Assembly: GCA_032718475.1 (NCBI GenBank)
Contig: JAUCBJ010008390.1
Location: 1-51,349, forward strand
Origin: Nemertoderma westbladi
Taxonomy: Eukaryota; Animalia; Xenacoelomorpha
Direction: 5' to 3'
Length of the DNA stretch: 51,349 nt
Shown: positions 20,401 through 48,200 of the stretch, piece after piece
How the letters are laid out: the number at the start of each line of letters is the position of its first letter
Position numbering within the stretch: position 1 is the stretch's first letter
Translations under genes and position numbers: made by a program
The notes under the pieces: generated by a model
Seen by the model: the letters and a program-made list of their open reading frames with translations, nothing else
What the model was told of the DNA's origin: nothing
The model's database searches: none

Positions 20401-20638
20401 TTATAAGTTTCCGATAAAATTACTGTATATTAAATACATAATGTGTCTACTTGTATACTATTAAACGTGTTTACTATTAAACATTACCTCTTCCAATGAT
20501 AACCATTCAAATGTTACCTTACGACCTCTACTGCCCTTCCATAATTGGTAAAATTAGAGAGTGTGTTTGTAAATCTTACATCCCTTCATGGTAGCGGTAG
20601 TTCCAAAATCCGTTTTGATTATCAATCCCCAATTCGAT

Positions 20639-21180
20639 TACTACTAGGATCGGCATGCTGCATTGCAGCTGCATTTTTAGGAATGCTGTGCCGGCTTGTC
20701 GACAAAATTGCGCCGCCACAACTCCCTATCGCCCATGACATTTGCTAGATCATCCGCATCTTCAAGGCCAGTGTCCTTTAAGATGCGTCTCAAGAAAGTC
20801 ATGGGCTGTCCACCATGCTTATTCACTCCATGAGGCTGCCAAAGTACAAGATTATGCACTGGCTGGTCCTCACGGCGAAAGCAATGTCCTGCAAAGTGGA
20901 GGTGAGTTTGTTCTAGTGTCAAGCTTGGGGGAAACAACGAGACACCTCCGATTTTATATAGTGTCTAGTTGGAGATGTGTGCATTGTACTAGACACAATG
21001 AACTCGGCGTAGCATTCTTGTGAATGTACCATCCAGAGATTTGGTGTCCTCAGCAGTTAGAGCCCAGCATGGACTCCCATAGAGGAGTACTGGAACTACT
21101 GCTGCTCTAAATAATCGGACCTTAAGTTTCCGATTAATTCTCGGTGACTTCCAAATCCTGGAAAGCCCATTCAAGGCTGC
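20639..21180 (-). mobile_element. RTE LINE copy 2, 3' part (split by the BEL insertion)
   Basis: Near-identical reverse complement of about 2807-3346. Confidence 0.92.
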
Positions 21181-22381
21181 TGTTCGCGCTTTCAGACCTT
21201 TGGCAGTTTAACCCGCCAAATTAGGATGTCTTCTAGATAATAATTCGCTTTTAGCCTATGACAAGTATTTGATTCACTACACTAGTCGAAACCAATCTGT
21301 GCGCGATCATTCACCCGCTGGATATACCCGGGAGATTGGGTTCGACGGCTTAATCGTATTGCTATGTAAGCCTAATGTATTATTCGACTGACAGTATTAT
21401 ATAATCTCTGACAATATTATTCACCTTCGGGAAATATTAACAGTTCCTTTAGGACGTGGCGCTCTACCTATATAAACAGAGTTATGACTTAAACTACTCA
21501 CAACGATATGGCTTAGTTATAATTCACATATATGGCGCATTCTTTAGGAAATGCTTCGTTATCAGGCTCACTCATACACAATGCTGCACAATACTGCACA
21601 CTGATCTGCCGATCTTCACTGATTTTAGTCACATATAAAAGGAACACGGACCGAATCATGTAGGGTCTATCAAATAACATTAGATTCACTTCAAACCACT
21701 TTAACATAAGTCACAATCGTTATATGTAACCTTTCTCTCTTACCTTCGGTATATCAAGAATATTGGGTTTTCGGGGTTATTTATCGTTATTCCAAATATA
21801 ATAATTCATCAACCATATTATGAAGAACCGACAGTAAATAGCAGTATAACAGTTTAAAGTATGCACAGTGTTACACAGTATGCAGTGTCAGTAAGTAAGG
21901 TTTGAGATAACGGATATATGTCCTTATAATTAAGCCTACTAGTGTTAGGCTAAAACAGAAAAGCACAAAATATTCCCAAGCCGCTCTCTCCTGGCCCAGG
22001 ACAGAATGTAAACACTGCACCTAAAGCATTGCCTGATTTCTAGGAAATTTCTCTACAAGAGCCATAAAAATGCTCTGATTGGCTGACTGAACTGAGAGAT
22101 GCCGTAGAACAAAGAAAATCAACACGTATGAATATCAGCTGTTAACCGACGTCATAGTAACTACTGTTCAAGAGTAGCTATCACCTTTTGCGTCACGGAA
22201 TTACCATAGAATCATCAACTATGCCTTTCACAGTACACATACAGAGGAAATAGCTCTTAGATCCTCTAAAAAACACCGATACAGCAATAATACGGTCTCT
22301 TACACCTATTAAATCAACTACAGAGTATTTTAATGTAAAAGATAATAAAAATAACGGGGCAATTCAGCAAAGGCTTTTACA
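21181..22381 (-). repeat. 3' LTR of the BEL element
   Basis: Direct repeat of 35865-37065. Preceded on the sense strand by a short purine-rich tract GGGAGCGG (22382-22389), the putative PPT. Confidence 0.97.
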
Positions 22382-23283
22382 CCGCTCCCAGAAAATGGGA
22401 TTTTCAGTCTATAAAATATAAAAATCACAGTTTCTAAAACATAAAGATACTCTAAACAGTTAGTTTTCTTTGCGCGGACGGCGTTTACGCAGTTTCCCGA
22501 GGCTAGCCAGAGTCCTTTTCTCCTTAGGGCGAGCCACTTTACTAGGAAGGCTATAACTCCTGGGTAAAGGGTGCAATACAATTGCATTAGAAGGTTTGGG
22601 TTTACGGTCGGTGTCTCGTCCAGTTCGATATGCTTCTCCTCGAGCTGATTTTCCTCCGCTTGTCATGGGATACGTTCGTCCAAAACTCTCGCAGAGAATA
22701 GGGTTTTCTAAGCTTGATATCTTCTTAGAGATTCGAGATTTCCCAATCGAACTGAGATAAGGCTAATTCGTTTATCGATTGGACTTACTGTTATAACTTA
22801 CGTTTATCTGAACAAACGCAGATTTCTTTTTTGATATTTATAGAATAGCGTTTAACTCGTTTCGTAGAACGCTCTCCTTCACCTTGATGAAGGGTTGTAT
22901 CGCGTTAAACGGGGACAACCATACGGTTGGATAGTGATATTAGGTGTCCGCGTCACAATCCGGCTAGGTAAGATGGGCGGCTAGCTAGAAATCACTGTCG
23001 GAGTGTTACCGATTAATTGTTAGGGTAGCACTAGATCTTTGAACAGTGAATACAGTCCGCGAGGATCCGCGACACCACCAGGATCGCAGGTCTGAGGTCC
23101 AACTAAGGAATGAGGAGGTTTGACCGAGTATTCCGGGACTCTGATCGTAGGTTTACTCCAGGATCGTTCGAGCCGAGTGAGCATAGGTGATACGTCAAAC
23201 AAGTTTCGCTCGAAACTCCAGTAAATATAACGAGCACAACTGTGTTTAACACAACGTTTCCGTGGATGTTTATGTCTTTCCGT

Positions 23284-23814
23284 TTATTGGCTGGGTCTAG
23301 GGCATTTATCGTAATAATACCAAAGACGCACGTCTTGAAGGGGAAACGCGGGTGATCGCTCTCCAGTTTTACAATATTCCTCCATCTGTTCGAAGCTATC
23401 TGGAACGACAGGTAGCGGTCGATCGGCGGTAAGATACATCATCGTAAAATAGAGCCGTTTGAGTTCCATCATAGGGTCTGGATGTATACCTTGAGGATAT
23501 CGAGTTTCGAGGTTTTGTTGACTGGCAATATTGAGATAGGTCTCTCTTAGGAATTCTAGATAGTCGTTGAAGTCGCGACGTTTATCAGGTTCTTCAACGT
23601 CTTCCCTCTCGAGTCTGTTTCGAATAGAGTTCTCGTGTTCTATTCTCGATTTATCGTTTCGACTCCGCTGGGTATGATATTTAAATAAATCCATTTCCCT
23701 TTCGGTGTCTATATCGTTGGTGTCGTGTAAATCAATAGGATGACCAGTAGTCAAGAAGTCCATATACGTACCATTACGATGCGTATAGCGAGCGGTGAAT
23801 TTTCCATAGTCCAA
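23284..23814 (-). CDS. Orphan extra ORF in the env position of the BEL element (176 aa, possibly 224 codons from ATG 23958 with one in-frame TAA)
   Basis: Sense-strand ORF, charged and helical-looking, no signal peptide or TM segment, no recognised motif. Confidence 0.45.
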   Translation of the reverse strand: MDYGKFTARYTHRNGTYMDFLTTGHPIDLHDTNDIDTEREMDLFKYHTQRSRNDKSRIEHENSIRNRLEREDVEEPDKRRDFNDYLEFLRETYLNIASQQNLETRYPQGIHPDPMMELKRLYFTMMYLTADRPLPVVPDSFEQMEEYCKTGERSPAFPLQDVRLWYYYDKCPRPSQ

Positions 23815-24059
23815 TTCACGCGTAAGTTACTTCCAGGAAATCGTAGGTTCGACATAACGACCATCATCCTCCGTAGTAGTTGGACTAGTATCACCGCGTA
23901 TCAAGCTATCAACAAACGCTTGAAAGTAGAGTATATCGCTCCCTGATACCAAGACCATCTTCTATCAACTCCGTCATATCTGCTATATATGAGTTTATTA
24001 ATATTATAATGAGTTTATATTTAGGCTAGCGAGCGTCGCTGCCTACCCCAATCAGCCCC

Positions 24060-24167
24060 CGGACAGTGCGAGATCCTCAGCGCCGATGTGTCGTCGCCGC
24101 TGTACTTTCGCCAACGACGTAGCCGCACAACGACAACGACAACCGGCACAAGTCACTCCACTGTCCG
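24060..24167 (-). ncRNA. Predicted long RNA hairpin in the BEL 3' non-coding region
   Basis: 25-bp upper stem with 6 G-U pairs and one bulge, plus a 9-bp basal stem CGGACAGUG/CACUGUCCG. Folds fully only on the element's sense strand. Confidence 0.6.
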
Positions 24168-25625: not shown

Positions 25626-25958
25626 TTAAGTTGGGGAGTCCCTAGATGTCGGTTGGATTAGGGAAGTGGTCGTGGGAAGAGTTTCTTGCCTTCCATAGTT
25701 TCCGGAGAGCTCTCTGTCTCTTTCCAGTAAACATAAACGACCCACTGGGCGATTAAGCTGTTGAGTCTCAAAGACTATCCCTGGTTTCTTAAAGTTACGC
25801 CGCATGATGACGAGCTCTACTGATCGCACCAAACCATCGCTCGAGATATGAGTCTCGATGATACGTCCTGTTTGCCATCGCTTACGTGGGAGATCGGGGT
25901 CCACAATAAGCACCATGTCTCCAGCGCTGACGTTTTCTTGCTGCGCAAACCACTTAGT
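25626..25958 (-). pseudogene. Integrase C-terminal (DUF5641-like) domain cut off by a nonsense codon
   Basis: In-frame continuation YLPTLQL*TKWF...GDMVLIVD..LPR..W..GRI......DGLVRSV. The usual BEL motif is LQxRxKW, so TGA at 25959-25961 is probably CGA>TGA. Confidence 0.85.
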
Positions 25959-28900
25959 TCAAAGTTGTAGAGTGGGCAGGTAATGTTTCTCGAAATGGTC
26001 AGCGAAACGATGGGATAGCAACTGCATAAGTTGCCAGGTTCGACGGCAGTACTCGTCTCCGTCTGTGATCTCCGATCGTGGGAGCATGGCTACGGGTTTC
26101 TTCAGTAGAAAGTGCGCGGGTGTTAGCGCTTCCAGGGAATCAGGACTTGAAGAGACTGGCATAAGCGGTCTTTCGTTGAGATAAGCGGCGATTTCCTCCA
26201 TTAACGTCCGCAATAGTTCGTCGGTGAGATAAACGCGACAAGGCACAATAAAGTGGAACGCAGTCTTCACGCTCCTAATCAATCTCTCCCAACTTCCTCC
26301 CCACCAAGGGGCGTCGGCGGCGTTGAAGGTCCAGCTAGACGCTGTTATCCTTAGCTGATCATCCACCTGTCTTTTGTTCCAGTCCTTTACGTAAGCTTGA
26401 ATTTCGTTGTTGGCGCCAATGAAGTTCGTTCCCTTATCCGATCTCATCGTGTTACTGGTTCCGAAACGAGCGATCTGTCGTCGTAAACTCAACACGAAGC
26501 TGTTGGTGGATAGATCGTTTACCATATCGAGATGGATAGCTCTACAAGTCATACAAACGAAGATGACACACCATCTCTTGACTATAGTCCGGGCACGATA
26601 TACTTCAATAGGGCCAAATAAATCCACACCGGTATTAGTAAAGGGTGGTTCGTAGAAGCTTACTCTTTCCCTAGGTAATTCTGCCTCTCGCTGTGTCAAA
26701 GGCCTACTGAATGCTTTCCTACAGGGTATGCAGTTCCTAAGGACTTGGTTCAGAGCCCTACGGGGTTTATAAAAATAGTAGCGAGTTCGAATTTCGCTCA
26801 GAACTCGTTCTCTTCCAGCATGATACAGTTTGCTATGAACATCTACAATCATCTTGATTTGTATGTCAAGATTTCTAATGAGTATGGGAAACTTAGTGTC
26901 AAAGGATAAGGGGGCGTTGGTGAGCCTGCCTCCAACACGTATTAACCCATCTATCATGGTACTAGAGAAGCGATCCCTTAAGCGCATCTGCGGATTTCTT
27001 AACAACAGGAAATACTTATCGGGATCCTCATAGCATTGTAGGAGTCTCAGCATCTGTTTGTTGGTTTTATCATGCTCCTGGTAACTGATCTTCTCCTTTA
27101 GAAACCTGTCGGATATCTTATATTTAGGAAGATCTTTAACAACATGGACTCTTGCAGATGTTGATGGAGCATCATCACTATTGGTCTTTGTCCCGGAGTA
27201 ACGATGATGAAAACATCGTTTTAAATAGGTGACGGCTTTACAGAGCCGATTCCAGGAACTGTAATGACGTATCACTCTCTGCAGGAGAGGTGATAGTCCT
27301 TGCGAAATATCTGGTATTCCAGATTTCCAATCCTTGTCACGGATTTCTAAGACTTCTTTATCCGTGGCTGTGGGTTTCTGATCCAAAGCATCCTCTCCGG
27401 AAGTAAATAATACAGATAGATCAACCGCAGGTTTAAACAACTTCGATTTACTCGCTCGAGTTTTGGGTTTAACTTTCTCCGCTCCCTTGGCCTGTCTGAT
27501 CTCTGCTGTTGTGAGATGGGGAGGCCATTCTTCTTCTTCTCTGTAGAGAAAGTCGGGTCCACCTAACCATTCGGGAGTATTTACCAATTCCTTTGGAGTC
27601 GCTCCTCGGGAAGCGATGTCTGCTGGATTAATCGTTCCGGGGCAATGTCTCCATTGGTCCATCGTCGTGCGACTAAGTATGATGGCTACTCTGTTGGTAA
27701 CGAAGACGCTGAACTGACAGACTTCATTGGTGATATACTCTAACACGAGTAAAGCGTCGGTCCAATAGACAGTTTTCTCTAATGGATAGTCAATCTGTTC
27801 TGTTACATTCCGGCCGATGGCTGTAGCGTATAGAGCCACTTTTAACTCCGCTCGAGGAACTTTCAACTTGTTGTTGATTAATGCCTTAGAAGTAACCAAG
27901 GCGACTTTGATTCCATCCGGAGTTTCCACTCTTAGATAGGCTACTATACCTATTCCCATATCGCTGGCGTCTCCAAACACATGGAGTTGATAGGAATACG
28001 TAGGGAGAACATGACCAAAATATGAACGGGAAATTATAAAATCCTCGATAGCCGGCAGAGAATCTTCCCATTTCATCCACTTCTTCAATAATTCTCCCTT
28101 AAGTGGATCGTCCCATGAGTGGTTTTCAAGCCACATTTGTTGTACCAAACTACGAGCAATCAATATAACTGGGCTAATAAATCCCAATGGATCGAAATAA
28201 GTGCTCAGTATACTTAAGCAAATCCGTTTGGTTCGAACTGGATTATCTCGCTGTTTTAGCTGGAAAAACAGGATATCTCGCTCTGTGTCCCATTTCAAGC
28301 CGAGTGTCTTGGTTTCTGGCAGATCATCTTTGATCAAATCTAGATCTTTCGCCCCTCGATCTTCCGCAGGGATCGACTCCAGAAACTCACGGGAGTTGCT
28401 GGTGAATTTCGTTAATCGAAACCCACCTCTTTTTAAGCACTCTACCGTTCCTTTAGCGACCTCAATGGCTTCCTCAACTGATGGAAGGGACTTCAGATTG
28501 TCGTCCATGTATATGTCCCGCTTGATGTTGTCGATCACTTCCTTAGAGAAGGCCTCTCGGTTGTCCTCTGCAGTGGTACGCACTACCGAACAGGCGTTGG
28601 AAGGGCTTGAGATTATCCCAAAGGCCTGGATGGTCATCCAATACTCCACCGGTTTCTGGTTTAGGTCTCCTTCGGGCCACCATAGAAATCGTAGGCTATC
28701 TCGATCCCTATCCAACACTTTGACTTGCAAGAACATGCCTTCTATATCGGAGGCGAAAGCAATCGAATATTGTCTCAATCTTAAAAGAATTCCCAACAAA
28801 GATTGAAGTAAGTTGGGTCCTGGTAACAATTCAGAGTTAAGGGATTGACCCATGTAAAGAGCGGAGCCATCAAACACTACTCTCACTTCATGTGGTTTAC

Positions 28901-30095
28901 CGGGTTTAGGAACGTAATGGTGAGTTAAGTAATACGTTCTTTCAGTCACAGGTGTTTCTTCCGGTACTCTCTCCGCGTATCCCTTACTAATAAATTTCTC
29001 CAGCTGTGTTTGATACATTTCTTTAGCTGAAGAATTAGCCGTAAGGCGTCGATGGAGTTGCGCGATTCTTTTTTCCGCCAAGGGTCTGTTATTGATGAAC
29101 TTCGGTTCTCTCTTGCGGAAAGGTAGACCGACTTCATACCTACCTTGATCTTTGAGGAAACGTGTAGTTGTCTCTTGGATCTGCTTGGCCCTTTCCTCTT
29201 CCACCGACAAGGCTTTATCGTAGGAATTGGGCTCTACCGCCTCTTGCGTAAAGAATCGTACGGCATGTTCATCTCGAGTCTTGGCATTGCAACGCTCAAT
29301 GACGTCATTTAACTCGTCGTTATAAGCTTCTCGTTCAGATGGATAGAGAAGTTGACATAAGTTCACTTGGTTTTGCCAAGCCTCGTTTTCCTTAAGGAGA
29401 TCGATGGTATTCTCCTCATCAAAAAGCTGGTGAACGTCGTCGTTATCTGAGGAGTATGGAGTTCCCTCAGTTAAATCGTCTCCCTCACTAGTATCATCTT
29501 CCCATTCACTCACCTGGCAGACGCTCTCTTGCGGTAGTCTTTCTCTGAGTGTTCTACGGGAAGGGCCAGTAAAGTACCAACCTACTCTAGTTCTTACCGC
29601 ATAGGTCTGTAGTGGCTGCGGTTGAGCAGGCCATTTCTCCAATGTCTCGAGCGCCTCATGCGCATTTTGGCCGATGAGTATTTGCACTCCAGGATAATCA
29701 GTCTGGAATCGAGGTATCTTAAGATGTTGGATGCTCTCATCCTCGTCCCAATTATAAAGGTCTGCTTGAGTAGTAGCGAAGTTCTTTATAGCCACCATTT
29801 TCACTGACCTTATGCTATGTTCTCCTAGTTCGTCCTGGGGGGTGGACAACGCTCCTACATAATAATCCGCTGTTATTGTAGATTTCCAAACTTGCATAAT
29901 TCCTGACATGTTTAGCTTAGTTCGGAACTTGGGTTGTCCATCGAATATGTCTTCGGCTAGTTCTTTATCAATGAATGTTCCTGTGCTGCCGGAGTCCAGG
30001 AGGGCGTTCACTACATAACTCCGTTTAGGTCCGTGAACCCTTACCTGCACCACAGGAAACTCTCGGATCCCTACATTGAAGATGGCTCTTTCCAA
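25959..30095 (-). CDS. BEL/Pao Pol (protease, RT, RNase H, integrase)
   Basis: ALLDSGS protease, RVVFDGS, SLN..L.PGP, DIEGMFLQV, YMDD, LGLKWD, FDPLG, HVFGDAS, NPADIASRG, HHCC, GVDLFGP, SDKGTNF, PWWGG.WER. Confidence 0.95.
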   Translation of the reverse strand: MERAIFNVGIREFPVVQVRVHGPKRSYVVNALLDSGSTGTFIDKELAEDIFDGQPKFRTKLNMSGIMQVWKSTITADYYVGALSTPQDELGEHSIRSVKMVAIKNFATTQADLYNWDEDESIQHLKIPRFQTDYPGVQILIGQNAHEALETLEKWPAQPQPLQTYAVRTRVGWYFTGPSRRTLRERLPQESVCQVSEWEDDTSEGDDLTEGTPYSSDNDDVHQLFDEENTIDLLKENEAWQNQVNLCQLLYPSEREAYNDELNDVIERCNAKTRDEHAVRFFTQEAVEPNSYDKALSVEEERAKQIQETTTRFLKDQGRYEVGLPFRKREPKFINNRPLAEKRIAQLHRRLTANSSAKEMYQTQLEKFISKGYAERVPEETPVTERTYYLTHHYVPKPGKPHEVRVVFDGSALYMGQSLNSELLPGPNLLQSLLGILLRLRQYSIAFASDIEGMFLQVKVLDRDRDSLRFLWWPEGDLNQKPVEYWMTIQAFGIISSPSNACSVVRTTAEDNREAFSKEVIDNIKRDIYMDDNLKSLPSVEEAIEVAKGTVECLKRGGFRLTKFTSNSREFLESIPAEDRGAKDLDLIKDDLPETKTLGLKWDTERDILFFQLKQRDNPVRTKRICLSILSTYFDPLGFISPVILIARSLVQQMWLENHSWDDPLKGELLKKWMKWEDSLPAIEDFIISRSYFGHVLPTYSYQLHVFGDASDMGIGIVAYLRVETPDGIKVALVTSKALINNKLKVPRAELKVALYATAIGRNVTEQIDYPLEKTVYWTDALLVLEYITNEVCQFSVFVTNRVAIILSRTTMDQWRHCPGTINPADIASRGATPKELVNTPEWLGGPDFLYREEEEWPPHLTTAEIRQAKGAEKVKPKTRASKSKLFKPAVDLSVLFTSGEDALDQKPTATDKEVLEIRDKDWKSGIPDISQGLSPLLQRVIRHYSSWNRLCKAVTYLKRCFHHRYSGTKTNSDDAPSTSARVHVVKDLPKYKISDRFLKEKISYQEHDKTNKQMLRLLQCYEDPDKYFLLLRNPQMRLRDRFSSTMIDGLIRVGGRLTNAPLSFDTKFPILIRNLDIQIKMIVDVHSKLYHAGRERVLSEIRTRYYFYKPRRALNQVLRNCIPCRKAFSRPLTQREAELPRERVSFYEPPFTNTGVDLFGPIEVYRARTIVKRWCVIFVCMTCRAIHLDMVNDLSTNSFVLSLRRQIARFGTSNTMRSDKGTNFIGANNEIQAYVKDWNKRQVDDQLRITASSWTFNAADAPWWGGSWERLIRSVKTAFHFIVPCRVYLTDELLRTLMEEIAAYLNERPLMPVSSSPDSLEALTPAHFLLKKPVAMLPRSEITDGDEYCRRTWQLMQLLSHRFADHFEKHYLPTLQL

Positions 30096-33000
30096 GAAGG
30101 TTGTCGATCCGAAGTAGTTAGAGTGAGGTCGCTGTCGGTATCCTTTTCATATGTGAGTGCTCGATACACTGCGGTATTTATCATGTAACAGGATTCGTTT
30201 TCGTCGGAGAACTCGTCCGTATAGAATCCTTCCATCTCAGATTGATCAGTGTCGTTCACATCACTGAATTGGACATGTAGTTCGGAATCACTTACCTGAC
30301 TCGGACTATTTCGCTCGAATTCAGTGTGCAACAATATATGATGTTTCGCACCGCACTTGGCACATCTTGTGTCAGAGTAACAGGATCGCCGCTGGTGTCC
30401 TTGTCTGAGGCAATTATAGCACAACCGCTTGTCCCACATGACTTCACGTCTCTCAGTTAATGATTTCTTTAGAAATTCATCACACATATTTAAGCGATGG
30501 GTCCCATCACATAGCGCACATTTCGGTTTGATGTTACTCACCTTACTCTGAGTGACATTGTGTACACTTGTTTTTTCTTCGGGCTTTCTCACCTGAATTC
30601 TCTTGGGAGACGTAGGAGGAGTTTTTCTTACCTGTTCTCTCCTGTCATTTGTTCGAGACTTGAATTTACTTACCTGATCTCTAGGCATTTTATTTACGTA
30701 ATAAGCGCGGTCAGTGTCTTTCCCGCTATCTTCTCCTTGAGAAGTCTGGCTTTCGCCATCATCTGTATAACACACTGGTGTTACCTTTCTCCTAGCGACG
30801 GGTTTTTCACTTACCTTGTTTTCCGGTGTCTTCTCTCTGGACAGTTTCAGGAGCTGTAATTTCACTTCTCCATCTAGGAATGACATGAGATCAGCCATGG
30901 TAGGGTCTCTTCGTTGTTGTTCCATCATATATAACACTTTCTTATCCCAGCGTGTACCTACTCCACCCTTCGGTAAAGTAGAAGCTACTGCTCTAATAAC
31001 CATAGTGTTCTGATACTCATGAGACTTACCTAGCCAATCTAATTGTCTGCAGATCTCCTGAATCTCATCGGAAAACTCTATAATTCCGCTGCTAATAAAC
31101 TTTCGGAGCTCTACCAACTTTGCATACAAATACCCAGCTATGTTATTCCTATTACCATACCTGATGTTAAGTGTATCCCAAACTTGTCTTAATCCGTCTG
31201 GATGTCCAATAAACTTTAACGCCATTAACTTGGGAGATCCTTCCAAGCATTCGATGAGGAATCTAAGTTTCTCTCCATTAGATAGCACAGAGTTCTGTAT
31301 GTTATCTTTGTAATATTCATTAAAAGGTAACCATTTCATCTCATCTCCATTGAACTTGACGATCTCTCCCACCTTTACCGCTTGCCGGGCTTCGGTTCTA
31401 GCCATTTGACGCGTAAAACTTTCTTGGGCCATCGTGTTATTTAATATCGAGTTATCGGTATATAAATTTCTCGGATTATGATCCGTTCTATATGGAATAT
31501 CATTATCAACAGGTCTATAATTACCCTTAATAGGGTTCACTATAGGAGTTTCTACTTCGCTAGCAGTATAGATGCGTGTAGGCTCCACACCTTGCGCATG
31601 CGATACTTCAGACCTAACAGGTTGACACATTGTTACAAGGGGTGGTGGTATACCCTTTTGTAAATTTACTAATTTATCGCGTTCTAACGCGATATTTTGC
31701 TGCACTTCCTGCAACTCTAACCTACTTTCCTTTACGGTTCCCTTTAACTGTTGAACAGTCCCTTCTAACTCTCGGACCTGTTGGGAGGAGCGCCTTTGAT
31801 TCTCCTCCATCTTTCCGAGGAGAATGTCCATCCCCCGCCGTCTCTCGTCCACCCAATCAACCGCCGAAACGGGATCCGCCAACGTTGTAGCGGGCGGACG
31901 AGGGACAACGGGCGACAAATCATGAACATTCCGCTCGGAGTCCAGAGCATGAACTGTCTCATGGGCTGTTCTGCTGGGCACAGGTAGCTTAGTGCTGTGC
32001 AACGGGAATTGAGAGGTAGGTTCAGGGAGTACAGGTGTCTCTACGACCGAAAGGGTAGCTTCGGGAACAGGCCTAATTATTTCAGGCTCATCTACTATAG
32101 TAGGGAGTCTCTCTATTGTAATTATTTGGTCTGTGGGTGCTGTACTCGCCAAGTTGGTGTTATTTAGTTGCCTTCTAACAGCTGGAGGCAAATCAGGCAA
32201 TTTCTGACGGTGGAATGTTCTTTTACGTCTGCTTAGACGAGATCGATTTCCTCCGCCTTCAGTGTCGGTGGTATCGCCTTCCTCAGATGATGTATAACCC
32301 TGTCTTTTGGGAGTAGATCGATTCATCATCTGCATATTACTAGCTGTTAACTGTTTACTGAAGTCGTCTTGCTTCTCTTGAAGATTTTCCAACTCCAGTT
32401 GGGCGATCTCTTCAGCCGCTCTCCGTTCTGCTTCCGCCACCGCTGCCGCTTTTGCCTCTGCCGCTGCCGCTGCTGCCGCTGCCAAGGTCGCTTTTCTTTC
32501 TGCCTCTGCCACTGCTGCTATCTTTCTGTCTTCTATACGTTTTTTCCTTACTTTTTCTTCTTGGTCTCTAGCGATGCGGAGTTGTTCATCGAATTTAGCT
32601 TGGTTCGCCGCTAACCTATCCACATCAATTGCATCCAACACACGCTGGGCTCCTTCACTATTAGGACTAAGTCCCGCTAACCTTCTCCTCAACTCTTCAT
32701 CTCCTACAAAACGTTGATAGTCTGACAGATAGATGTCAATGGCATCCCTCTTATGCGGTTTCTCTGCCGTCGCTTCACTTTCCACTTGGGAAAAAGTAGC
32801 GTCTGTTGATTCTCCATGGGTTGAGCGCTCCTCCAGCTGATCTTTCCACTGAGCTGTTCCTTGAACCTGGCGACTCACCCGTTGAAACCAAGTCTTTACG
32901 GCAACTTGCAACGACGTGTCTTGTCTTCTTTTAGAAGCCTCTTCAAAGGCTGATAATATTAGCCTAATTCGCAGAATTCTTTCTCTAACTTGATAAAGCA

Positions 33001-33697
33001 GTTGTCCCTGCTCTTGAGGTCCTTGAGGTTGTTGTAACAGTTGTTTTTCTACTCTCTCCATAGAGCTGAAGAATCCCTGTGCGTATCCGGCTGCGGACCT
33101 CTTCCACACAGCTGGATCGATGGTTTCCTTGGCTACTCCCATCCGGTGTATGTCTTCCCAGGCAGCTTCTGATAAATCGAACGGGAGTCCGGGTCCGGGG
33201 AAGTTCCATTGCGACTCGACCATAGATTTCAGTTCCTCCTTTGTGTATCCCACATAACTATCTTTAGTTGAGCGCTTACTTCTCGCCCAATCGATCTGGT
33301 GTTCTTCCACCGCGATCAATAGCCTAGTGAGTACGGCTGCAGGAAGGATGAGAAGGGGATCCGAATAAACCGCATCCGTCATCCTTGCTCCGCGCTCGGG
33401 TGTCAGTTCTACAGTATCTTCACTACTGGAGCTGTCGGGCCGCTGAGAAATAAATTCTTGGCTCGCGGGTGGTTGCTGTTCCGCTGCTTTTTGGTCCCGC
33501 TTGACCTGAGCTCGAGTGCCTATGATAGACCTACGATGTTGGACCAGCCTAGGTTCTGTTATTACTACTGGAGGGATGACCTTTCTCACAGTGGGAGGTG
33601 AACTGAACTTAGGTGTAGACGGTTCTACACCTTTATCTGAGTCGCAGATAGTTACATCTAATAAACTGTCTGACAGGTTCTGCTTAATATCAGACAT
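30071..33697 (-). CDS. BEL/Pao Gag with a long N-terminal extension (1208 aa)
   Basis: DUF1759-like F.GD...W..F...K...L..CL.G region and knuckles CALCDGTHRLNMC, CYNCLRQGHQRRSC, CAKCGAKHHILLH. Confidence 0.9.
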   Translation of the reverse strand: MSDIKQNLSDSLLDVTICDSDKGVEPSTPKFSSPPTVRKVIPPVVITEPRLVQHRRSIIGTRAQVKRDQKAAEQQPPASQEFISQRPDSSSSEDTVELTPERGARMTDAVYSDPLLILPAAVLTRLLIAVEEHQIDWARSKRSTKDSYVGYTKEELKSMVESQWNFPGPGLPFDLSEAAWEDIHRMGVAKETIDPAVWKRSAAGYAQGFFSSMERVEKQLLQQPQGPQEQGQLLYQVRERILRIRLILSAFEEASKRRQDTSLQVAVKTWFQRVSRQVQGTAQWKDQLEERSTHGESTDATFSQVESEATAEKPHKRDAIDIYLSDYQRFVGDEELRRRLAGLSPNSEGAQRVLDAIDVDRLAANQAKFDEQLRIARDQEEKVRKKRIEDRKIAAVAEAERKATLAAAAAAAAEAKAAAVAEAERRAAEEIAQLELENLQEKQDDFSKQLTASNMQMMNRSTPKRQGYTSSEEGDTTDTEGGGNRSRLSRRKRTFHRQKLPDLPPAVRRQLNNTNLASTAPTDQIITIERLPTIVDEPEIIRPVPEATLSVVETPVLPEPTSQFPLHSTKLPVPSRTAHETVHALDSERNVHDLSPVVPRPPATTLADPVSAVDWVDERRRGMDILLGKMEENQRRSSQQVRELEGTVQQLKGTVKESRLELQEVQQNIALERDKLVNLQKGIPPPLVTMCQPVRSEVSHAQGVEPTRIYTASEVETPIVNPIKGNYRPVDNDIPYRTDHNPRNLYTDNSILNNTMAQESFTRQMARTEARQAVKVGEIVKFNGDEMKWLPFNEYYKDNIQNSVLSNGEKLRFLIECLEGSPKLMALKFIGHPDGLRQVWDTLNIRYGNRNNIAGYLYAKLVELRKFISSGIIEFSDEIQEICRQLDWLGKSHEYQNTMVIRAVASTLPKGGVGTRWDKKVLYMMEQQRRDPTMADLMSFLDGEVKLQLLKLSREKTPENKVSEKPVARRKVTPVCYTDDGESQTSQGEDSGKDTDRAYYVNKMPRDQVSKFKSRTNDRREQVRKTPPTSPKRIQVRKPEEKTSVHNVTQSKVSNIKPKCALCDGTHRLNMCDEFLKKSLTERREVMWDKRLCYNCLRQGHQRRSCYSDTRCAKCGAKHHILLHTEFERNSPSQVSDSELHVQFSDVNDTDQSEMEGFYTDEFSDENESCYMINTAVYRALTYEKDTDSDLTLTTSDRQPSWKEPSSM

Positions 33698-35007
33698 GTT
33701 TGTTTACACAGTTGAATGTCTACCGCTATATTACAGTCTAAGCAAGTCTAGTAATTTAGTGTTAACTGCTAGCCTAGTAATTAATTACCGATACTGCTAC
33801 TCAATGTAGCGTGATATATATAATATATTAGAATACCGGTATGCTTATTGTATATATAAGTATTATTACAGACTAGGTTTTTCACAGAAACCGGTATATA
33901 ATTTTAGCACAAATATATATAAATATATAATAGGCCTATCGGGAATACCGGTATACAGCTTACAGTTTGTAGTATATATAATTCTGGACTAGAATTAATT
34001 ACAAGTACCGGTATAATTTCAGCCTAAATTTATTAGAAATAAAGATAATAGGCCTATCGTAAATACCGGTATATCAATTATTTTAAATAATTGAATTTCT
34101 GAATTTTAGGGTTACTTGGTTACTTTACTTACTTTATTACCGCTATTTAAGCAGTAGTCCAACTGATATTGAGACCTAATTGTTGTATGGCAGGCCTACT
34201 ATTTATAAATCGTTTGAGTTGATTTATAATATATATATACCCGTTTTAATGGGTTTTGTCAATGTTTGAAATAAATGTTATTATTTCTGGGGAGTAATCA
34301 CTACACAAAGCGGTGCGCTTTCAGTGAAGTGTTACTTATAGGACACTAAAACAAATAATGCTAATTTACCTAAGTTACTTAATACTACAAATTACGTACA
34401 ATTCGGGTGAGATTACAATCTCTAAATAAACACAAAAATTTACAAAAAACACAAAATACGAATTTTCAGGGTAATTTTACAAGAAGTCTACAAACCAGCC
34501 TAACAAAGGGTTAGAATCTGGTTATTACAACGGACAGGGTACTACGGTATTTGAAAATAATAAGTAGTAGTAAATACACTGCGTTGTCCAGATAGGAAAA
34601 TACCACCGCCTGACGACCTATAGCCGTATCGCTATAGGTACTACGTTATGTATCACGGAGTGTTCCTACCTAGAAGTTAATAGAGCTAATCGAACGTGCC
34701 TATCAACCACTTTACAACACAAATATAATGCCTACACTAATTACTCTCGGAAAGCACTGTACACTAAACCCTAAATTAGGTACGAGTGCTTATACAACAG
34801 ATAATCAGTAGTTAAAAATACTTGAACAGCTAAAAGAACCACGGCATCTGCTGGAGTGACCGGTGCACAAAATCACCAGTCTTTACCTACGCCAAGCAGC
34901 CCGTGTAGTACCGGGGTTAATTTAACTATAACGGTATGTATAACAAACACAATTATTGTAGGAACAAACTTGGGGAATGAATGTTGCGAATAATCGCATA
35001 AACTCTG

Positions 35008-35585
35008 AATAATAAATATTACGCTACGCGTACAAACCACTCAAACAAAATGCAGACCAAATACTGACAGACTACTATCAAGCCTAAATAAACTACAGGA
35101 CATGCAGACTCCGAAATGATTAGGTAGTATGCGTTCTAACCCAGTAGTACGACTTATTCTTTAGTTGGGGGTTTACCTTACAGCATTGGCTGCCCCTACT
35201 TCCTAACCGTTCTTTATCGGACAGAGGCTCTACACACACTGCAATCCGTTCAGACCTAATAACAGCCAGACAACTATCCAGCCTACAAATTATCTAAATA
35301 AATATTATACGCTACCCGTACAGACTTACACAAACAAAGTACAGACTAAACGATGGCAGACTACTCTCAAGCCTAAATAAACTACAGGACATGCAGACTC
35401 CGAAATGATTAGGTAGTATGCGTTCTAACCCAGTAGTACGACTTATTCTTTAGTTGGGGGTTTACCTTACAGCATTGGCTGCCCCTACTTCCTAACCGTT
35501 CTTTATCGGACAGATGATCTACACACACTGCAATCCGTTCAGGCCTAACAGCAATCAGACAACAGCTCAGCCTACAAATTGTCTG
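35008..35585 (-). repeat. Two tandem ~289-bp repeats in the BEL 5' UTR
   Basis: Core 35079-35225 is identical to 35368-35514, while the flanks have diverged. Confidence 0.9.
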
Positions 35586-35852
35586 TACAATCTGATCAGG
35601 CTTACACGCCTTCTGTTCAATACTGGCCTACAAACAAATAAAACTTGACAGAAATAAGTAAAAATCTCAATAAAAAACCAGGGCTGCAGTCCCTGATTAA
35701 TTATTAAGGCCTACCGGTATATAATTATCAAAATCGAATAATACTGCTGTACCTGTACTGCTGTAGGTACCGGTCCGGGTGGTTAGGTAGTCAGGCCTAC
35801 TGGGTGCCGGTTGCCGGTACTTCAGCTTTATTGCCTACTGCAATACAGAAGC

Positions 35853-35864
35853 TATATCCGTTAT
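35853..35864 (-). promoter_or_regulatory. Non-tRNA primer-binding site, self-complementary to the LTR
   Basis: Sense ATAACGGATATA abuts the 5' LTR and is the exact complement of sense TATATCCGTTAT at 36591-36602 (and 21907-21918). Confidence 0.75.
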
Positions 35865-37065
35865 TGTTCGCGCTTTCAGACCTTTGGCAGTTTAACCCGC
35901 CAAATTAGGATGTCTTCTAGATAATAATTCGCTTTTAGCCTATGACAAGTATTTGATTCACTACACTAGTCGAAACCAATCTGTGCGCGATCATTCACCC
36001 GCTGGATATACCCGGGAGATTGGGTTCGACGGCTTAATCGTATTGCTATGTAAGCCTAATGTATTATTCGACTGACAGTATTATATAATCTCTGACAATA
36101 TTATTCACCTTCGGGAAATATTAACAGTTCCTTTAGGACGTGGCGCTCTACCTATATAAACAGAGTTATGACTTAAACTACTCACAACGATATGGCTTAG
36201 TTATAATTCACATATATGGCGCATTCTTTAGGAAATGCTTCGTTATCAGTCTCACTCATACACAATGCTGCACAATACTGCACACTGATCTGCCGATCTT
36301 CACTGATTTTAGTCACATATGAAAGGAACACGGACCGAATCATGTAGGGTCTATCAAATAACATTAGATTCACTTCAAACCACTTTAACATAAGTCACAA
36401 TCGTTATATGTAACCTTTCTCTCTTACCTTTGGTATATCAAGAATATTGGGTTTTCGGGGTTATTTATCGTTATTCCAAATATAATAATTCATCAACCAT
36501 ATTATGAAGAACCGACAGTAAATAGCAGTATAACAGTTTAAAGTATGCACAGTGTTACACAGTATGCAGTGTCAGTAAGTAAGGTTTGAGATAACGGATA
36601 TATGTCCTTATAATTAAGCCTACTAGTGTTAGGCTAAAACAGAAAAGCACAAAATATTCCCAAGCCGCTCTCTCCTGGCCCAGGACAGAATGTAAACACT
36701 GCACCTAAAGCATTGCCTGATTTCTAGGAAATTTCTCTACAAGAGCCATAAAAATGCTCTGATTGGCTGACTGAACTGAGAGATGCCGTAGAACAAAGAA
36801 AATCAACACATATGAATATCAGCTGTTAACCGTCGTCATAGTAACTACTGTTCAAGAGTAGCTATCACCTTTTGCGTCACGGAATTGCCATAGAATCATC
36901 AACTATGCCTTTCACAGTACACATACAGAGGAAATAGCTCTTAGATCCTCTAAAAAACACCGATACAGCAATAATACGGTCTCTTACACCTATTAAATCA
37001 ACTACAGAGTATTTTAATGTAAAAGATAATAAAAATAACGGGGCAATTCAGCAAAGGCTTTTACA
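35865..37065 (-). repeat. 5' LTR of the BEL element
   Basis: Direct repeat of 21181-22381, upstream of gag on the minus strand. Confidence 0.97.
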
Positions 37066-38175
37066 GCTGCCCAGCCCATGCTTTTCCCTTACGTATTCGA
37101 AGGTCCTCACCTGACTTCCGGATCCATGATCCCAGGTAACAGAAGTCGTCCACATGCTCAAGCATACCATCCTTTGAGCTTATGCTCATCCGATCAGAGA
37201 CTTGCTGAGAACTTTCAAAGTTAACTGTCAAAATTTTGGTCTTTCTGGAGTTAATAACAAGACCAACACTAGAAGCAGCATGTTCTAATGAGCTGAGGAG
37301 CCGTTGGGCTCCCTCTAGTGATTCTGAGAGTACTCCTAAGTCATCAGCAAAGTCTAGATCAGTTAGGTACATGGCAGGATTTCCTCGACTTCTGGAGCCA
37401 GTAGGTGGAGTTATCATCACCCCATCATCATTATGATGATCTAAGGACATGCGTAGAACATAGTCAACCACAATTATGAACAATAATGGTGCAAGTGTGT
37501 CTCCCTTTAGGACGCCCCATAATACAGAACCATTTGAAGTATTATATAACACTTCAAATGGTTCTGTGTCACCATCAACAGTAGACACAAATGTTGTCGA
37601 ACCATCGTATACTGATCTGATTGCTGCAATAATTTCATCAGGAATCCCATATAATGAAAGTATGCTGAACATACGTGAACGGGAGACTGACACTGAATCA
37701 AAGGCCTTGAAGAAGTCAACAAAGATAACAGCCAGATGCCTGTCTTTCTTTTTTGATAACTCTTCAATTATCCTTATAAGTATCAAAATGGGCTCCATGG
37801 TCCCACGACCTTTACGGAACAAATTCTGATTTCTACGGAGCAGTCTCTCAATGGGATCCCTGATTGATTTAATAGAATTCTATTGTATAGCTTTGCAGCA
37901 ATCGCGATCAATGAGATTAAAAGAACCATAGAGTGTTGGGTTGCCCTTCTTGGGAACTGGCACCAACTTATTTGTTTTCATTTCTTGTGGGACTCTTGTT
38001 GTTCGGTACATGTCTACTATGATGGGATAGATGAGCTTTAAACACTCAGGTATTTTAAAGACCTCAGGGGGAACACCATCTACTCCACTGGCACGATTGG
38101 TCTTAATGCTCTTTGCAGCAGCCTTCACTTCTGCAAAGGAGATATCGCCAATGGGAATATCTGGGAGTACGAGTA
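37066..38175 (-). mobile_element. RTE LINE copy 2, 5' part (RT pseudogene)
   Basis: ASGVDGVPPEVFK, LVPVPKKG, FVDFFKAFDSV, DLDFADD and FCYLGS. Continues into 21180 across the GCTGC TSD. Confidence 0.92.
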
Positions 38176-42251: not shown

Positions 42252-45200
42252 ATGTACGATTTACTTGGTGTCATTGCTTTTGTCTCAACCGTTTGTTACG
42301 GTAACCCAATTGGTGACGTCGTACTATACGGGGAGGGACGCCTCCAATCACCGATCGATATAGTAGATGCGGACACGGTTTCGGACTGCGGACTTCGACC
42401 ATTTGTGTTGCCGACAATCGTTCCATCTGATGAAACCTTCATAATAAACGACGGAAACGTATTACGGGTAAAGTTTATTTTTTTCCGGTTACGAGTTATT
42501 TTTGAGGTTATTTACCTAAGGACTTGTTAATAACCCCGCTGTGAAGCTGTGGGTTTATAAAGTAAATGGAATGAGGGTAGATTACCAGAAAGTACATTAT
42601 GATTATGAATTATTAAAGCACAGTATGTATTTTTTCTAAATATTTTTCAATTTTATTTGTTTATTTGATTTTCACGAATAAACGGACATAGGGGCTCATA
42701 AAAAAACCTTTGCAGATAATGTTTTTAATGTTTGGATATCATGCCTAACATCCTAAAGTATCTGAAATGGGAAATTGGAATCAAATTCCGTTATGTGTGG
42801 GCTCATACTTGCAAGTTGAAATTGACTGAACATTTTTTTACATTTTTCAAAATCGCTGTGCGAATTTTGCCTACAATTAAGGCGAAAATACAGTCATTAC
42901 AAATAACATAAATCTTAGTCTGCTTATTTGCCTGTGTGAGTGATGGTTCAACCTCGGTTGCAGTTCAAGAAATAAAATAATTTTGGTTTCCTAGAGAACA
43001 ATCAACTTCGTTTGAAAAAATAACAAAACGCTATTGCGAATTTCGTAATTCCGTAACGAAAACATGACATTTTTTAAAATAGCTTTTAAACTACTCAACA
43101 TGTGACATTCAAAATTTAATTTCTCTTCCTCTAACCGCTGGGCAATACGCAATTATTTTCCTTTTGTGGCAATGTGATATATAAGTCGAGATATTTGCGT
43201 TACGGAATTACAATTTCACGTTACGGAATTACGTTACGGAATTACAGTTTTCCAACAATGCGTGACGATTGTCGGTGTAGACTGCAGAGTGGTACACTGC
43301 GAGACGTTAGAATTGGTGTACAGTGGTACAATGCGATTCGTTAATGTTGGTGTAGACTGGTACACTTCGAGACGTTAGTGTTTGTGTAGACTAGTACACT
43401 GGGAGACGTCAGTGTTGGTGTAGACTGGTACACTGCGATAGATTAATGTTGGTGTAGACTGGTACACTGAGAGACGTTAGTGTTGTGTAGACTGGCACAC
43501 TGCGAGACGTCAGTGTTGGTGTAGACTGGTACACTGCGAGACGTTAGTGTTGGTGTAGACTGGTACAATGCGATACGTTAATTTTGGTGTTGACTTGCAC
43601 AAAAGACTTTAGTGTTTAAGTAAGTAAAGTAAAGTAAATTTTCTTCGGCCGCTAGACCAGGGATTACGCACAAAGTCTGATTGATGACTTATTTCCAGTG
43701 CGGTCCCCCAGAACTTTACTCCCCAGAGGAAACTCCAGTACTCATTTAGCTACCACTTAAGGATGCAAGGCAGAGATGCGCCCTGGCTGGTCCCTTTAAA
43801 GCATTCGTGCCGAAACGAAAACTGCCCTGGCCCATGTGAGGATCGAACCCACGACCTACGGGAGATGTGAATTCAATGCGACCACTACACCAAGGTGGAA
43901 CTTTATTGGTTTAGACTTGTACATTGGGAGACGTTAGTGTTGGTGTAGACAGATACACGGCGATACATTAATGTTGGTGTAGACTGGAACATTGAGAAAC
44001 GTTAGTGTTGTTGTGGACTGGTACACAGCGAGACGGTAGGGGTGTAGACTGGTACACTGATAGACGTTAGTGTCGTTACCTCTAACGTTGGCATTCAGAG
44101 CATTGTATTAAATTACCATTTTTATAGAACATGTGTGTGGAATATATTGTCGTAATTCAATGAAACGACCGATATTGCACCAGTTCCACCGCGCAGTTAT
44201 TCTTCAACGTTATAGTGATTTGTTGGTGCTGTGCTGATGTAAAGCTGGCTGTGCAAGGATTCCAAGGATGTAAAAACATTTGAATTTGGTTTGGAAATAG
44301 CTGCAGTGTAACTGGTGCAATATCGCCGGCGACTCTTTTTTTAACGCTTGTAACTATAGATTGAAAGCAAAAATAAAAATTCCGGCTCTCCCACTAAGTG
44401 GTCAGGAAAGTTTCAAATTTCTATCAATCTCATTAAGACTTGTAGAAAAATTGGCGGGGGGTCGTGCCATTGAATTATGGCACTATATTCCGGGCCATGG
44501 TGTTGTATGTATATCACGATGACAATTATCCCAGTTCAATAACTTCGCAAATTCGCACGAAATTCCGTAACGATCTGGTTTGTAATTCCATAACGACACC
44601 AATAAAGCTGTAACACAAAATTGATTGCTAAATCTGCTTAATCTTTACCATGGCGGGCATTTTGAACATCTCTACTTATGTATGACACCGAGTAACACCT
44701 TATCTGGGAAAAGTCGTGCGAAATGTAATTCCGTAATGATGAAATTCATGAAGGTCGAAAGTTCTATGTGTTTTAAATACTGTAGGTAGATGCCTGATTT
44801 TGTATATAATGTTCTAGAACAAATAAACGACTGCTACCATATTTCATATTTTAGAAATATTTATATTCATACGCAACAACTATTATTTAGGAGTAAAATC
44901 AAAAATGTGTCAAAAATGTTACTGTAGCTATCACTAAGTAAAACCTTTAGCTAACACAAAATGTTTTAGCTAACATTTAGTTCTAGAAGGCTACAATTAT
45001 GTCTCATCAATTCACCATATTGCAGCGAATAAATTGTGGCGTGTCAAGTAGAAACGAACGGAGCCCCTAAAGGGACGAGTGAACCAAAAAATTATTACGA
45101 CATTACATTACGACGATTAGCACGACATACTAAGTCGTTCGAACTTCGAACGACATACTAAGTCGGGCGAACGACATACTAAGTAGTGCGATGTGCGAAC

Positions 45201-48200
45201 GATATACTAAGTCGTTCGAACTTCGAACGACATACTAAGTCGGGCGAACGACATACTAAGTAGTGCGATGTGCGAACGATATACTAAGTCGTGCGAACGA
45301 CATACTAAGTCGTGCGAACGACATACTAGACCGTGCGAACAACATACTAAGTCGTTCGAACGACTTAACTAACTCATGCGAACGACATACTAAGTCGTGC
45401 GAACGACTTACTAAGTCGTGCGAACGACATACTAAGTCGTGCGAACGACATACTAAGTCGTGCGAACGACATACTAAGTCGTGCGAACGACTTACTAAGT
45501 CGTGCGAACGACATACTAGGCCGTGCGAACAACATACTAAGTCGTGCGAACGACTTAACTAACTCATGCGAACGACATACTAAGTCGTGCGAACGACATA
45601 CTAAGTCGTGCGAACTACATACTAAGTCGTGCGAACGACATACTAAGTCGTGCGAACGACATACTAAGTCGTGCGAACGACATACTAAGTCGTGCGAACG
45701 ACTTACTAAGTCGTGCGAACGACATACTAGGCCGTGCGAACAACATACTAAGTCGTGCGAACGACTTAACTAACTCATGCGAACGACATACTAAGTCGTG
45801 CGAACGACATACTAAGTCGTGCGAACGACATACTAAGTCGTGCGAACGACATACTAAGTCGTGCAAACGACATACTAAGTCGTGCGAACGACATACTAAG
45901 TCGTGCGAACGACTTACTAAGTCGTGCGAACGACATACTAGGCCGTGCGAACAACATACTAAGTCGTGCGAACGACTTAACTAACTCGTGCGAACGACAT
46001 ACTAAGTCGTGCGAACGACATACTAAGTCGTGCGAACGACATACTAAGTCGTGCGAACGACATACTAAGTCGTGCGAACGACATACTAAGTCGTGCGAAC
46101 GACTTACTAAGTCGTGCGAACGACATACTAGGCCGTGCGAACAACATACTAAGTCGTGCGAACGACTTAACTAACTCATTAGAACGACATACTAAGTCGT
46201 GCGAACGACATACTAAGTCGTGCGAACGACATACTAAGTCGTGCGAACGACATACTAAGTCGTGCGAACGACATACTAAGTCGTGCGAGCGACATACTAA
46301 GTCGTGCTAACGACATACTAGGCCGTGCGAACAACATACTAAGTCGTGCGAACGACTTAACTAACTCATGCGAACGACATACTAAGTCGTGCGAACGACA
46401 TAGTAACTCATGCGAACGACATACTAAGTCGTGCGAACGACATACTAAGTCGTGCGAACGACATACTAAGTCGTGCGAACAACATACTAAGTCGTGCGAA
46501 CGACATACTAAGTCGTGCGAACGACATACTAAGTCGTGCGAACGACATACTACAGTAAGTCGTGCGAGCGACATACTAAGTCGTGCGAACGACTTACTAA
46601 GTCGTGCGAGCTGCGAGCGACATACTAAGTCGTGCGAACGACATTATAAGTTGTTTAACTTAGGCCAAACATACGGACAGATTTCATCTGCTTTAAAACT
46701 AAATAATGAAGTTATCCTAAGCGTCCGACAAATTGAAAGAATATTGAGTGGACTGAATTTGGGCAGGAGAAATGTTTACACTAATACAGAAGAAGTTATT
46801 AATTTCATTTCCAATGAAATTAAAGGATCAGGGCACCTGCATGGGTATCGCATGATACACACCAAGTACTTATTAGCTGGTCTGCGAGTGCGAAAGGAAG
46901 ATGTGCGTCACATTCTCCGCATGCTCGATCCTGAAGTATCGCAATGGCGCGCTACGAAACGTTTGCGTCGCGACTTAGTATGTCGTTCGCACGAGTAGGT
47001 TAAGTCGTACGCTCGACTTAGTATGTCGTTCGCACGACTTAGTATGTCGTTCGCACGAGTTAGTTAAGTCGTTCGCTCGACTTAGTATGTCGTTCGCACG
47101 ACTTAGTATGTCGTTCGAAAGACTTACTAAGTCGTTCGCACGTGTTAGCGAAATTTTTTTTTTCTCATGTCCCTTCAGGGGCTCCGTAGAAACGTATAGT
47201 ATAAAAAAAGGCGTTCTGAGATAAACGCATTTCAAGTTTTAGGATATGTTTATTTTTCCTTGCAAACCCTATGCCTATGGTCTAGAATGACAGTTTCTGA
47301 CTCAAAACTTTACAAGGTATCCGAAAATTTTGATTTAAACCACGTAGAAGCAATCCTTTGTTCCCAAATATATGATGACAGACAGACTGGCAAAATGACG
47401 GACAGGCGGACAGACAGTCTAGATTACGTGAAATTTGAAAACTGACATCAGAAATGAAATCACAAACCCGGAAAACCTCTCTAGCCATAATTTTAGTTAG
47501 TTAGCATGCTTTTTTAATGTTTGACAGACAGTCTGACAAAAAGATGGACAGACAGACAAACAGCCTATTTCGTAAAATGTGCAACCTAACATCGCAAAAG
47601 AGATCACGAACCTGTAAAATACCCGTAGCGAGAATTTTAACTAGTTTGTTTGCTTTCTTAATGTTTGACAGACAAACAGACTGACAGACAGAAATATGAA
47701 TGGATATCTGGTGTGGTCTGAATTCGTTTTGAAGAAATTATGAGCGATCGATAACCCTTAAAGTGATAAGTTCATAAGTTCTTAAAGTGAAAAAGATAAG
47801 ATCACTTTCCTTAAAGGAAAGTGATACTGTAGAAGATAAGTGTTATATACCACTAGAAAGCCCGCTTATAATCTCGATAATTCCATTATTATAATTTCTA
47901 AATTTTGATTTTGTAAAATCTGCCTCCAGTCACGTGTGGCGGCTACATGGCTGCCTCCCGTGACGCGTGGCGGCTACATGGCTGCCTCCAGTCACGCGTG
48001 GCGGCTACATGGCTGCCTCCAGTCACGCGTGGCGGCTACATGGCTGCCTCACGTCACGCGTGGCGGCTACATGGCTGCTTCCAGTCGCCCGTGGCGGCTA
48101 CATGGCTGCCTCCCGTCACGCGTGGCGGCTACATGGCTGCCTCCAGTCACGCGTGGCGGCTACATGACTGCCTCCAGTCACGCGTGGCGGCTACATGGCT

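Follow-up and report, generated by a model that had tools for sequence, protein, structure and literature searches.

The window, the whole 51,349-nt stretch of Nemertoderma westbladi DNA analysed here, carries a complete LTR element of 15,885 bp on the minus strand, from 37065 to 21181. Its two LTRs are 1201 bp each, have TG...CA ends and differ by 6 mismatches; at 99.5% identity between the copies, the element is a young, recent insertion. The insertion point lies inside a LINE reverse transcriptase (RT) gene, and the form of this LINE without the interruption is present in run X1. The parts of the element are as follows.

37066..37070, minus strand: target-site duplication, left copy, 5 bp, GCAGC
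35865..37065, minus strand: 5′ LTR, 1201 bp, TG...CA
35011..35584, minus strand: tandem repeat, two copies of 289 bp, within the 2.2-kb 5′ leader
30071..33703, minus strand: Gag ORF, 1210 aa from stop to stop, with DUF1759 and a triple Cys-His box
25959..30146, minus strand: Pol ORF, 1395 aa, overlapping gag in a different frame
25626..25958, minus strand: DUF5641 tail of Pol, in frame, with one stop codon (25961-25959) between
23284..23826, minus strand: extra ORF, 180 aa, in the 3.2-kb post-pol region
22382..22389, minus strand: short polypurine tract, adjoining the 3′ LTR
21181..22381, minus strand: 3′ LTR, with a second copy of the 12-mer described below at 21918-21907
21176..21180, minus strand: target-site duplication, right copy, 5 bp, GCAGC

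The element belongs to BEL/Pao by its LTR features, its Gag motifs and a Pol ordered PR-RT-RH-IN with Pao-type domains. Pol contains a protease (LLDSG, LIG), an RT (YMDD), an RNase H (DAS; Peptidase_A17) and an integrase, and its closest homologues share the same Pfam set at a best identity of 43-45%, those with names coming from sea urchins, cnidarians, a mussel, a ribbon worm, a tunicate and fish. A search of the element for a chromodomain gave no match. The 3.2-kb post-pol region (22382-25625, minus strand) holds the 180-aa ORF, for which a Pfam search gave no match, and a 97-bp imperfect repeat; together with the 2.2-kb leader, it makes the element far longer than the size range given by ICTV.

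Several other features of the window were recorded. On the plus strand, 17390-19285 is a 631-aa ORF free of interruptions; it combines ankyrin repeats with a DHHC palmitoyltransferase domain and is possibly a retrocopy or a single-exon gene. A 1604-aa open frame (10227-16688, plus strand) runs through a higher-order 60/390-bp tandem array at about 10270-13970 and is followed, in frame past a stop, by a LINE-type RT. At 45147-47142 lies a 21-bp satellite whose higher-order units measure 190/211 bp; an inverted block of the same unit follows about 320 bp downstream. Within the interrupted LINE RT, a near-perfect hairpin at 37518-37572 matches several Rfam hairpin models weakly, below threshold.

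The start of reverse transcription concerns two short sites.

35853..35864, minus strand: primer-binding site (PBS), zero spacer, no TGG; ATAACGGATATA
36591..36602, minus strand: predicted self-primer 12-mer, contiguous, no intron; predicted RNA 5′ end at about 36601-36603

The initial annotation held that no TGG-type tRNA PBS follows the 5′ LTR and that, with zero spacer, the PBS is the perfect complement of a 12-mer inside the LTR. Both observations were borne out: TGG is absent from the first 20 nt past the 5′ LTR, and 35864-35853 is the exact reverse complement of 36602-36591 (12/12). Base composition alone gives an expectation of 2.3e-4 for a 12-nt match. When the LTR was shuffled with dinucleotides preserved and a spacer of 0-4 nt was allowed, 3 of 5000 shuffles reached 12 nt, a chance of about 6e-4 per element; of 300 random internal 32-mers, none did. 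A different, spliced primer in this LTR was considered and rejected, the best split match being 11 nt with a non-consensus donor. ARAGORN found 0 tRNAs in the window. Rfam returned nothing at gathering score over 20500-38000, so no element-encoded primer RNA was seen. Run X1 spans all 30 bins and contains many variants, none at the PBS or the 12-mer among those listed, and it is uninformative on the PBS of sister copies.

Relatives were collected by Pol alignment. Metagenomes supplied 79 loci from the best 80 of 539 matches, and a further 14 loci (L080-L093) came from prokaryote-labelled assemblies; with the window element, these formed 62 families at 85% DNA identity. A search for Pol relatives among viral contigs found none. 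The BEL/Pao Pol sequences in the 14 contigs of prokaryote-labelled assembled genomes, some of them within complete elements, are likely eukaryotic host contamination.

In 18 loci, representing 15 families, the 5′ LTR end could be fixed by the divergence of the two LTR copies alone. None of these 15 families has a TGG PBS, and the best contiguous LTR complement in the fixed-end loci is only 4-9 nt. This contiguous complement usually starts directly after a pyrimidine tract and AG, with the remainder found just before an upstream GT donor. A complement of 10-15 nt was reached only across a GT-AG intron, in 13/18 loci and 11/15 families under the strict test, and each passing locus exceeded all of its random internal controls (300 per locus; p 0.003). 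Looser limits raise the number of split-complement families from 11 to 14 of 15. Three loci that missed the strict test (L030, L045 and L077) are recovered once the acceptor rule is relaxed or a 4-nt spacer is allowed; L063, another miss, is one copy of the passing L059 family, and L080 has a fixed LTR end, yet 1 mismatch in 10. The LTRs of L045 are identical and end in TA, not CA, with a 4-nt spacer before the PBS (7440-7448).

Two scans were blind to the LTR end, and the counts of both include some false matches. The first scored 25/51 families, while its control transforms scored 4, 4 and 8; the second scored 36/54 families, and its controls 7 and 4. From the second scan, 34 split-complement families were picked by eye as a curated set, so that matches inside this set are partly true by selection. 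Rows of that scan with a site beyond a plausible LTR or PBS were left out (L003, L012, L023, L080, L083, WIN and a 13-nt match in L059/L062). The 34 split families and two with a contiguous complement (L018 and L038) make up 36 of the 53 relative families with enough upstream DNA, so the complementarity is conserved in related families, a check proposed with the initial annotation. The remaining 17/53 were assigned to neither class, and several of those checked have no LTR; LTRs were looked for in outgroup loci L089, L091 and L092, and none was found. A primer split by an apparent intron in most relatives goes beyond anything the initial annotation had claimed.

Across the 34 curated families, the paired length is 10-15 nt with a mode of 11 nt (18/34), the introns measure 71-1022 nt and the predicted first exon is very short, with 3-10 paired nt upstream of the donor. 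Three features that the scans did not ask for recur. Two of them are in the donor and the primer: donor position +6 is T in 30/34 families, against 235/890 (26%) in the background (p 6e-14), and the primer 3′ end is AC in 29/34, ACT in 3/34 and AT in 2/34. The third is GGR, which occurs 6-20 nt before the donor in 23/34, against 18/132 further upstream, for a motif chosen after seeing the data. When the leader was started at the first paired base, its predicted fold formed the duplex in 22/25 families if spliced and in 3/25 if unspliced.

Primer and PBS also change together, the point of a co-variation check suggested initially. Sister families show two paired changes in L082/L084, two in L021/L022 and four in L055/L077, falling on both sides of the intron. 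The mirrored changes may arise mechanically, through recopying of the PBS from the primer in each replication cycle; this in turn would imply that the sequence is used as a primer.

Folding and promoter context of the window element involve four further features.

36604..36609, minus strand: motif containing GG, directly before the primer, in the position of the GGR found in 23/34 relatives
36581..36589, minus strand: stretch able to pair 8/9 with the U5 end (35884-35876), P about 0.17
36351..36427, minus strand: intron-like stretch, 77 nt, with a GTAAGA donor and an AG acceptor, from a motif scan only, downstream of the primer
35883..35904, minus strand: U5 hairpin, 8 bp with one G-U pair, P 0.56-1.0

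For an RNA beginning at 36601 or 36603, the primer-PBS duplex is present in the minimum free energy and centroid structures and has a probability of 0.84-1.0 in the folding ensemble. With a start at 36640 or 36700, its predicted probability is 0.01 or less, and in the 36640 fold the 12-mer instead pairs with 36213-36246. This internal stretch (minus strand) resembles the PBS, interrupted by a short spacer, and can pair with the 12-mer when the upstream LTR is included; such pairing might hide the primer within the 3′ LTR copy, or it might be a folding artefact. The loop between primer and PBS is 726 nt, against 53-435 nt in 27 relatives. Folding z of the last 40 nt before the PBS is -2.3, with a median of -0.15 over 35 elements.

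Two flanking structures had been described initially. The 8-bp U5 hairpin is predicted to form in this element, and the 8/9 pairing can indeed be read from the letters; its probability is low and its rank among swapped partners is 0.06, with relatives spread evenly, and the pairing is weak and not a conserved feature. In the 'pretzel'/U5-stem comparison, neither was kept across relatives, and conservation was rejected for the adjacent duplex and the U5 hairpin alike.

The start site lacks a TATA box at -25 to -30, as had been noted; a TATAA at 36612 lies only 10 nt upstream. The missing box had been raised as a caveat, which is a weak one, given that 31/34 relatives also have no TATA-like motif; with such a motif in 3/34, TATA was rejected as start-site support. 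A CA initiator at a fixed position was looked for among the relatives and not found. The GG-containing motif at 36604..36609 is a possible core-promoter element, present in the window element and absent in L018 and L038. An 11-nt motif at 36603-36613, just upstream of the primer, is identical in the LTRs of L077 and L055 despite a tree that rejects close kinship, and it may be a conserved promoter element.

Downstream of the primer, the LTR contains consensus-like donors and acceptors at 36351-36427 and 36151-36255 (minus strand), and the 77-nt donor-acceptor pair has the size of the relatives' shortest introns. If spliced in the RNA that is copied, such pairs should vanish from the progeny, yet they persist.

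Forms without the intron occur among the relatives as well. In L077 the 3′ LTR carries the intron, and the 5′ copy on the same contig (which may represent DNA or RNA) has the two sides joined exactly. In L038/L039 the intron is absent from a 5′ LTR that is flanked by host sequence and from a 3′ LTR that follows the polypurine tract, and both LTR copies of L018 lack it; in quick trees, L038/L039 and L018 nest among intron-bearing lineages. The window element forms a long branch outside the sampled intron-bearing families and meets the outgroup, and its intron-less state may be derived or ancestral. Kinship with L055/L037/L077, a candidate raised by the shared 11-nt upstream motif, was rejected (AU p 4e-5). 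Because the window element is far from the sampled families, the support that they lend it is an analogy of architecture, not close kinship.

We propose that this recently inserted BEL/Pao element likely primes reverse transcription in the manner of Tf1, from its own LTR 12-mer, and we put the probability of this reading at about 0.8. The self-priming interpretation of the initial annotation is supported by the lack of a TGG PBS in all 15 fixed-end families and by a complementarity kept while the PBS itself varies. The RNA would start at about 36601-36603, near the first paired base, and its first 11-12 nt would fold onto the PBS. The folded 5′ end would then be cut free behind AC or AT, probably by the RNase H of the element, and the freed primer would begin minus-strand DNA 0-4 nt from the LTR end. 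In relatives, a tiny first exon would be spliced to exon 2 to make the primer, a step that the window element would not need; on the best reading of these sequences, it would be the intron-less form of an element whose primer is usually splice-built.

Whatever lies upstream of the cut, the intron included, would be restored from the 3′ LTR copy, which must therefore be unspliced for the progeny LTRs to inherit the intron. The 5′ copy would thus be spliced while the same intron in the 3′ LTR copy stayed in place, and occasional copying of a spliced 3′ LTR could give rise to intron-less forms. For a large branch of BEL/Pao elements in aquatic animals, we consider it a good bet, held less firmly than self-priming in the window element, that tRNA priming has been dropped and that the host spliceosome builds a primer of about 11 nt from an intron kept in the 3′ LTR copy, with intron-less elements as recurrent escapes or the ancestral state.

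The primer could also be the element's own sequence acting in trans or from the 3′ LTR copy, as a second packaged RNA, a short capped LTR transcript or an internal fragment; a supply from the 3′ LTR had been suggested initially. The 12-mer is present in the 3′ LTR too, the 726-nt loop is long and an RNA start 40-100 nt further upstream would abolish the predicted duplex, all of which would suit such a source. A primer from the 3′ copy would require relatives to splice the 3′ intron, and progeny would then lose it; the donor is retained unspliced in 68/69 motif-matched LTR copies. That the 3′ intron must stay unspliced argues against the 3′ copy, not against a separate spliced RNA in trans. In relatives the pairing also ends within 3-10 nt upstream of the donor, as expected with an RNA start there, and overall we regard this origin of the primer as unlikely.

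It is improbable that the match in the window arose by chance or by a one-off rearrangement, with the real PBS of the family being different. In favour of this reading, the element is distant from all relatives and has one stop in its Pol tail, and a chance match is expected at about 6e-4 per element. Against it, the site follows the pattern of the relatives in having no spacer and a priming orientation, in its length of 12 nt, in the AT at the primer 3′ end and in the GG motif upstream; the contiguous layout recurs in intron-less L038/L039 and L018, the LTRs are nearly identical and the target-site duplication is intact.

The pairing could be real and serve RNA regulation or packaging, for example as a splicing-dependent switch, with priming done otherwise. 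The flanking Tf1-type duplexes are not conserved, as this would allow, but all curated families place the 3′ end of the paired strand within 0-4 nt of the LTR end, the point at which minus-strand synthesis has to begin, and they show no other PBS; we give this reading very little credence. Least credible of all is priming by a host half-tRNA or other small RNA with an incidental LTR match, for although the accessible text of PMC6317226 describes half-tRNA priming in Ty1/copia lineages, the 34 families have 26 different PBS 10-mers, each matching its own LTR junction, only 30/1332 cross pairs reach 10 nt, all between families with near-identical primers, and no match of the window primer to another PBS exceeds 2 nt.

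If self-priming from a spliced leader is correct for the relatives, splicing would license reverse transcription: a splice-made primer would tie an intron directly to the start of DNA synthesis and give the host a control point. Under this model, a single RNA would have to lose the intron near its 5′ end yet retain it near its 3′ end. Such elements will be classed as PBS-less by annotation tools that seek either a tRNA site or an unbroken match to the LTR.

ICTV describes Belpaoviridae as tRNA-primed, as the initial annotation had stated, with an 18-nt PBS for tRNA-Arg or tRNA-Gly and genomes of 4.2-10 kb (PMC8742986). The window element resembles this family in its PR-RT-RH-IN order, overlapping gag and pol and 1.2-kb LTR, and differs from Belpaoviridae/Semotivirus in its length of 15.9 kb and in its PBS, which lacks the TGG of a tRNA-type site; membership of BEL/Pao stands despite the non-tRNA PBS because it rests on the proteins. 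In the accessible part of its description, Sinbad (PMC554778) has the same triple Cys-His box, LLDSG and LIG protease motifs and DAS RNase H; that part mentions no PBS or tRNA. The BEL/Pao survey PMC3118150 does not mention primer, PBS or intron, and the available portions of PMC3601003, PMC5443660 and PMC8220671 added nothing. In searches of the main texts of openly accessible papers, we found no report that BEL/Pao elements self-prime or use a splice-built primer.

Tf1/sushi, Tcn1 and TAR elements are described as self-priming in the accessible portions of PMC6317226, PMC4600332, PMC7175516, PMC5341516 and bioRxiv 10.1101/2022.12.06.519325. For the TAR lineage (Houba and Osr-1, plant Ty1/copia) and the Tcn1 chromoviruses, it was predicted from an LTR complement of at least 10 nt, so that proposals of self-priming already cover more than one family (PMC6317226, in the text available). 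These elements belong to other families and hosts, and detection by contiguous matches, as used there, would miss the intron-split form.

The closest parallel is Tf1, in which, as far as the available text of PMC7175516 and PMC4600332 goes, the PBS is bound by the initial 11 bases of the RNA, and the RNase H cut falls between bases 11 and 12. Like Tf1, Tf2 and Tj1 of the Tf1/sushi group (Metaviridae), as described in the accessible sources, the window element has no tRNA site and a PBS, abutting the LTR end, that is complementary to about 11 nt of its own LTR. Tf1/sushi elements are Ty3/gypsy chromoviruses; the window element has the Gag and Pol of BEL/Pao instead of a chromovirus RT-RH-IN, and would work like Tf1 as a non-member. 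The three-duplex 'pretzel' of Tf1/sushi, in the available text of bioRxiv 10.1101/2022.12.06.519325, is unsupported here, where one flanking duplex was compared and is not conserved. We found no intron-split primer described for Tf1/sushi in the portions of the sources available, in contrast to the relatives analysed here. Self-priming in Belpaoviridae would probably be of independent origin, and it would make theirs the third family of LTR elements with this mechanism. Its proposed occurrence in BEL/Pao, a family described as tRNA-primed, with a putative splice-built primer in most relatives, appears to be new, and the modal primer length of those relatives, 11 nt, is that of the Tf1 primer as given in the accessible text of PMC7175516.
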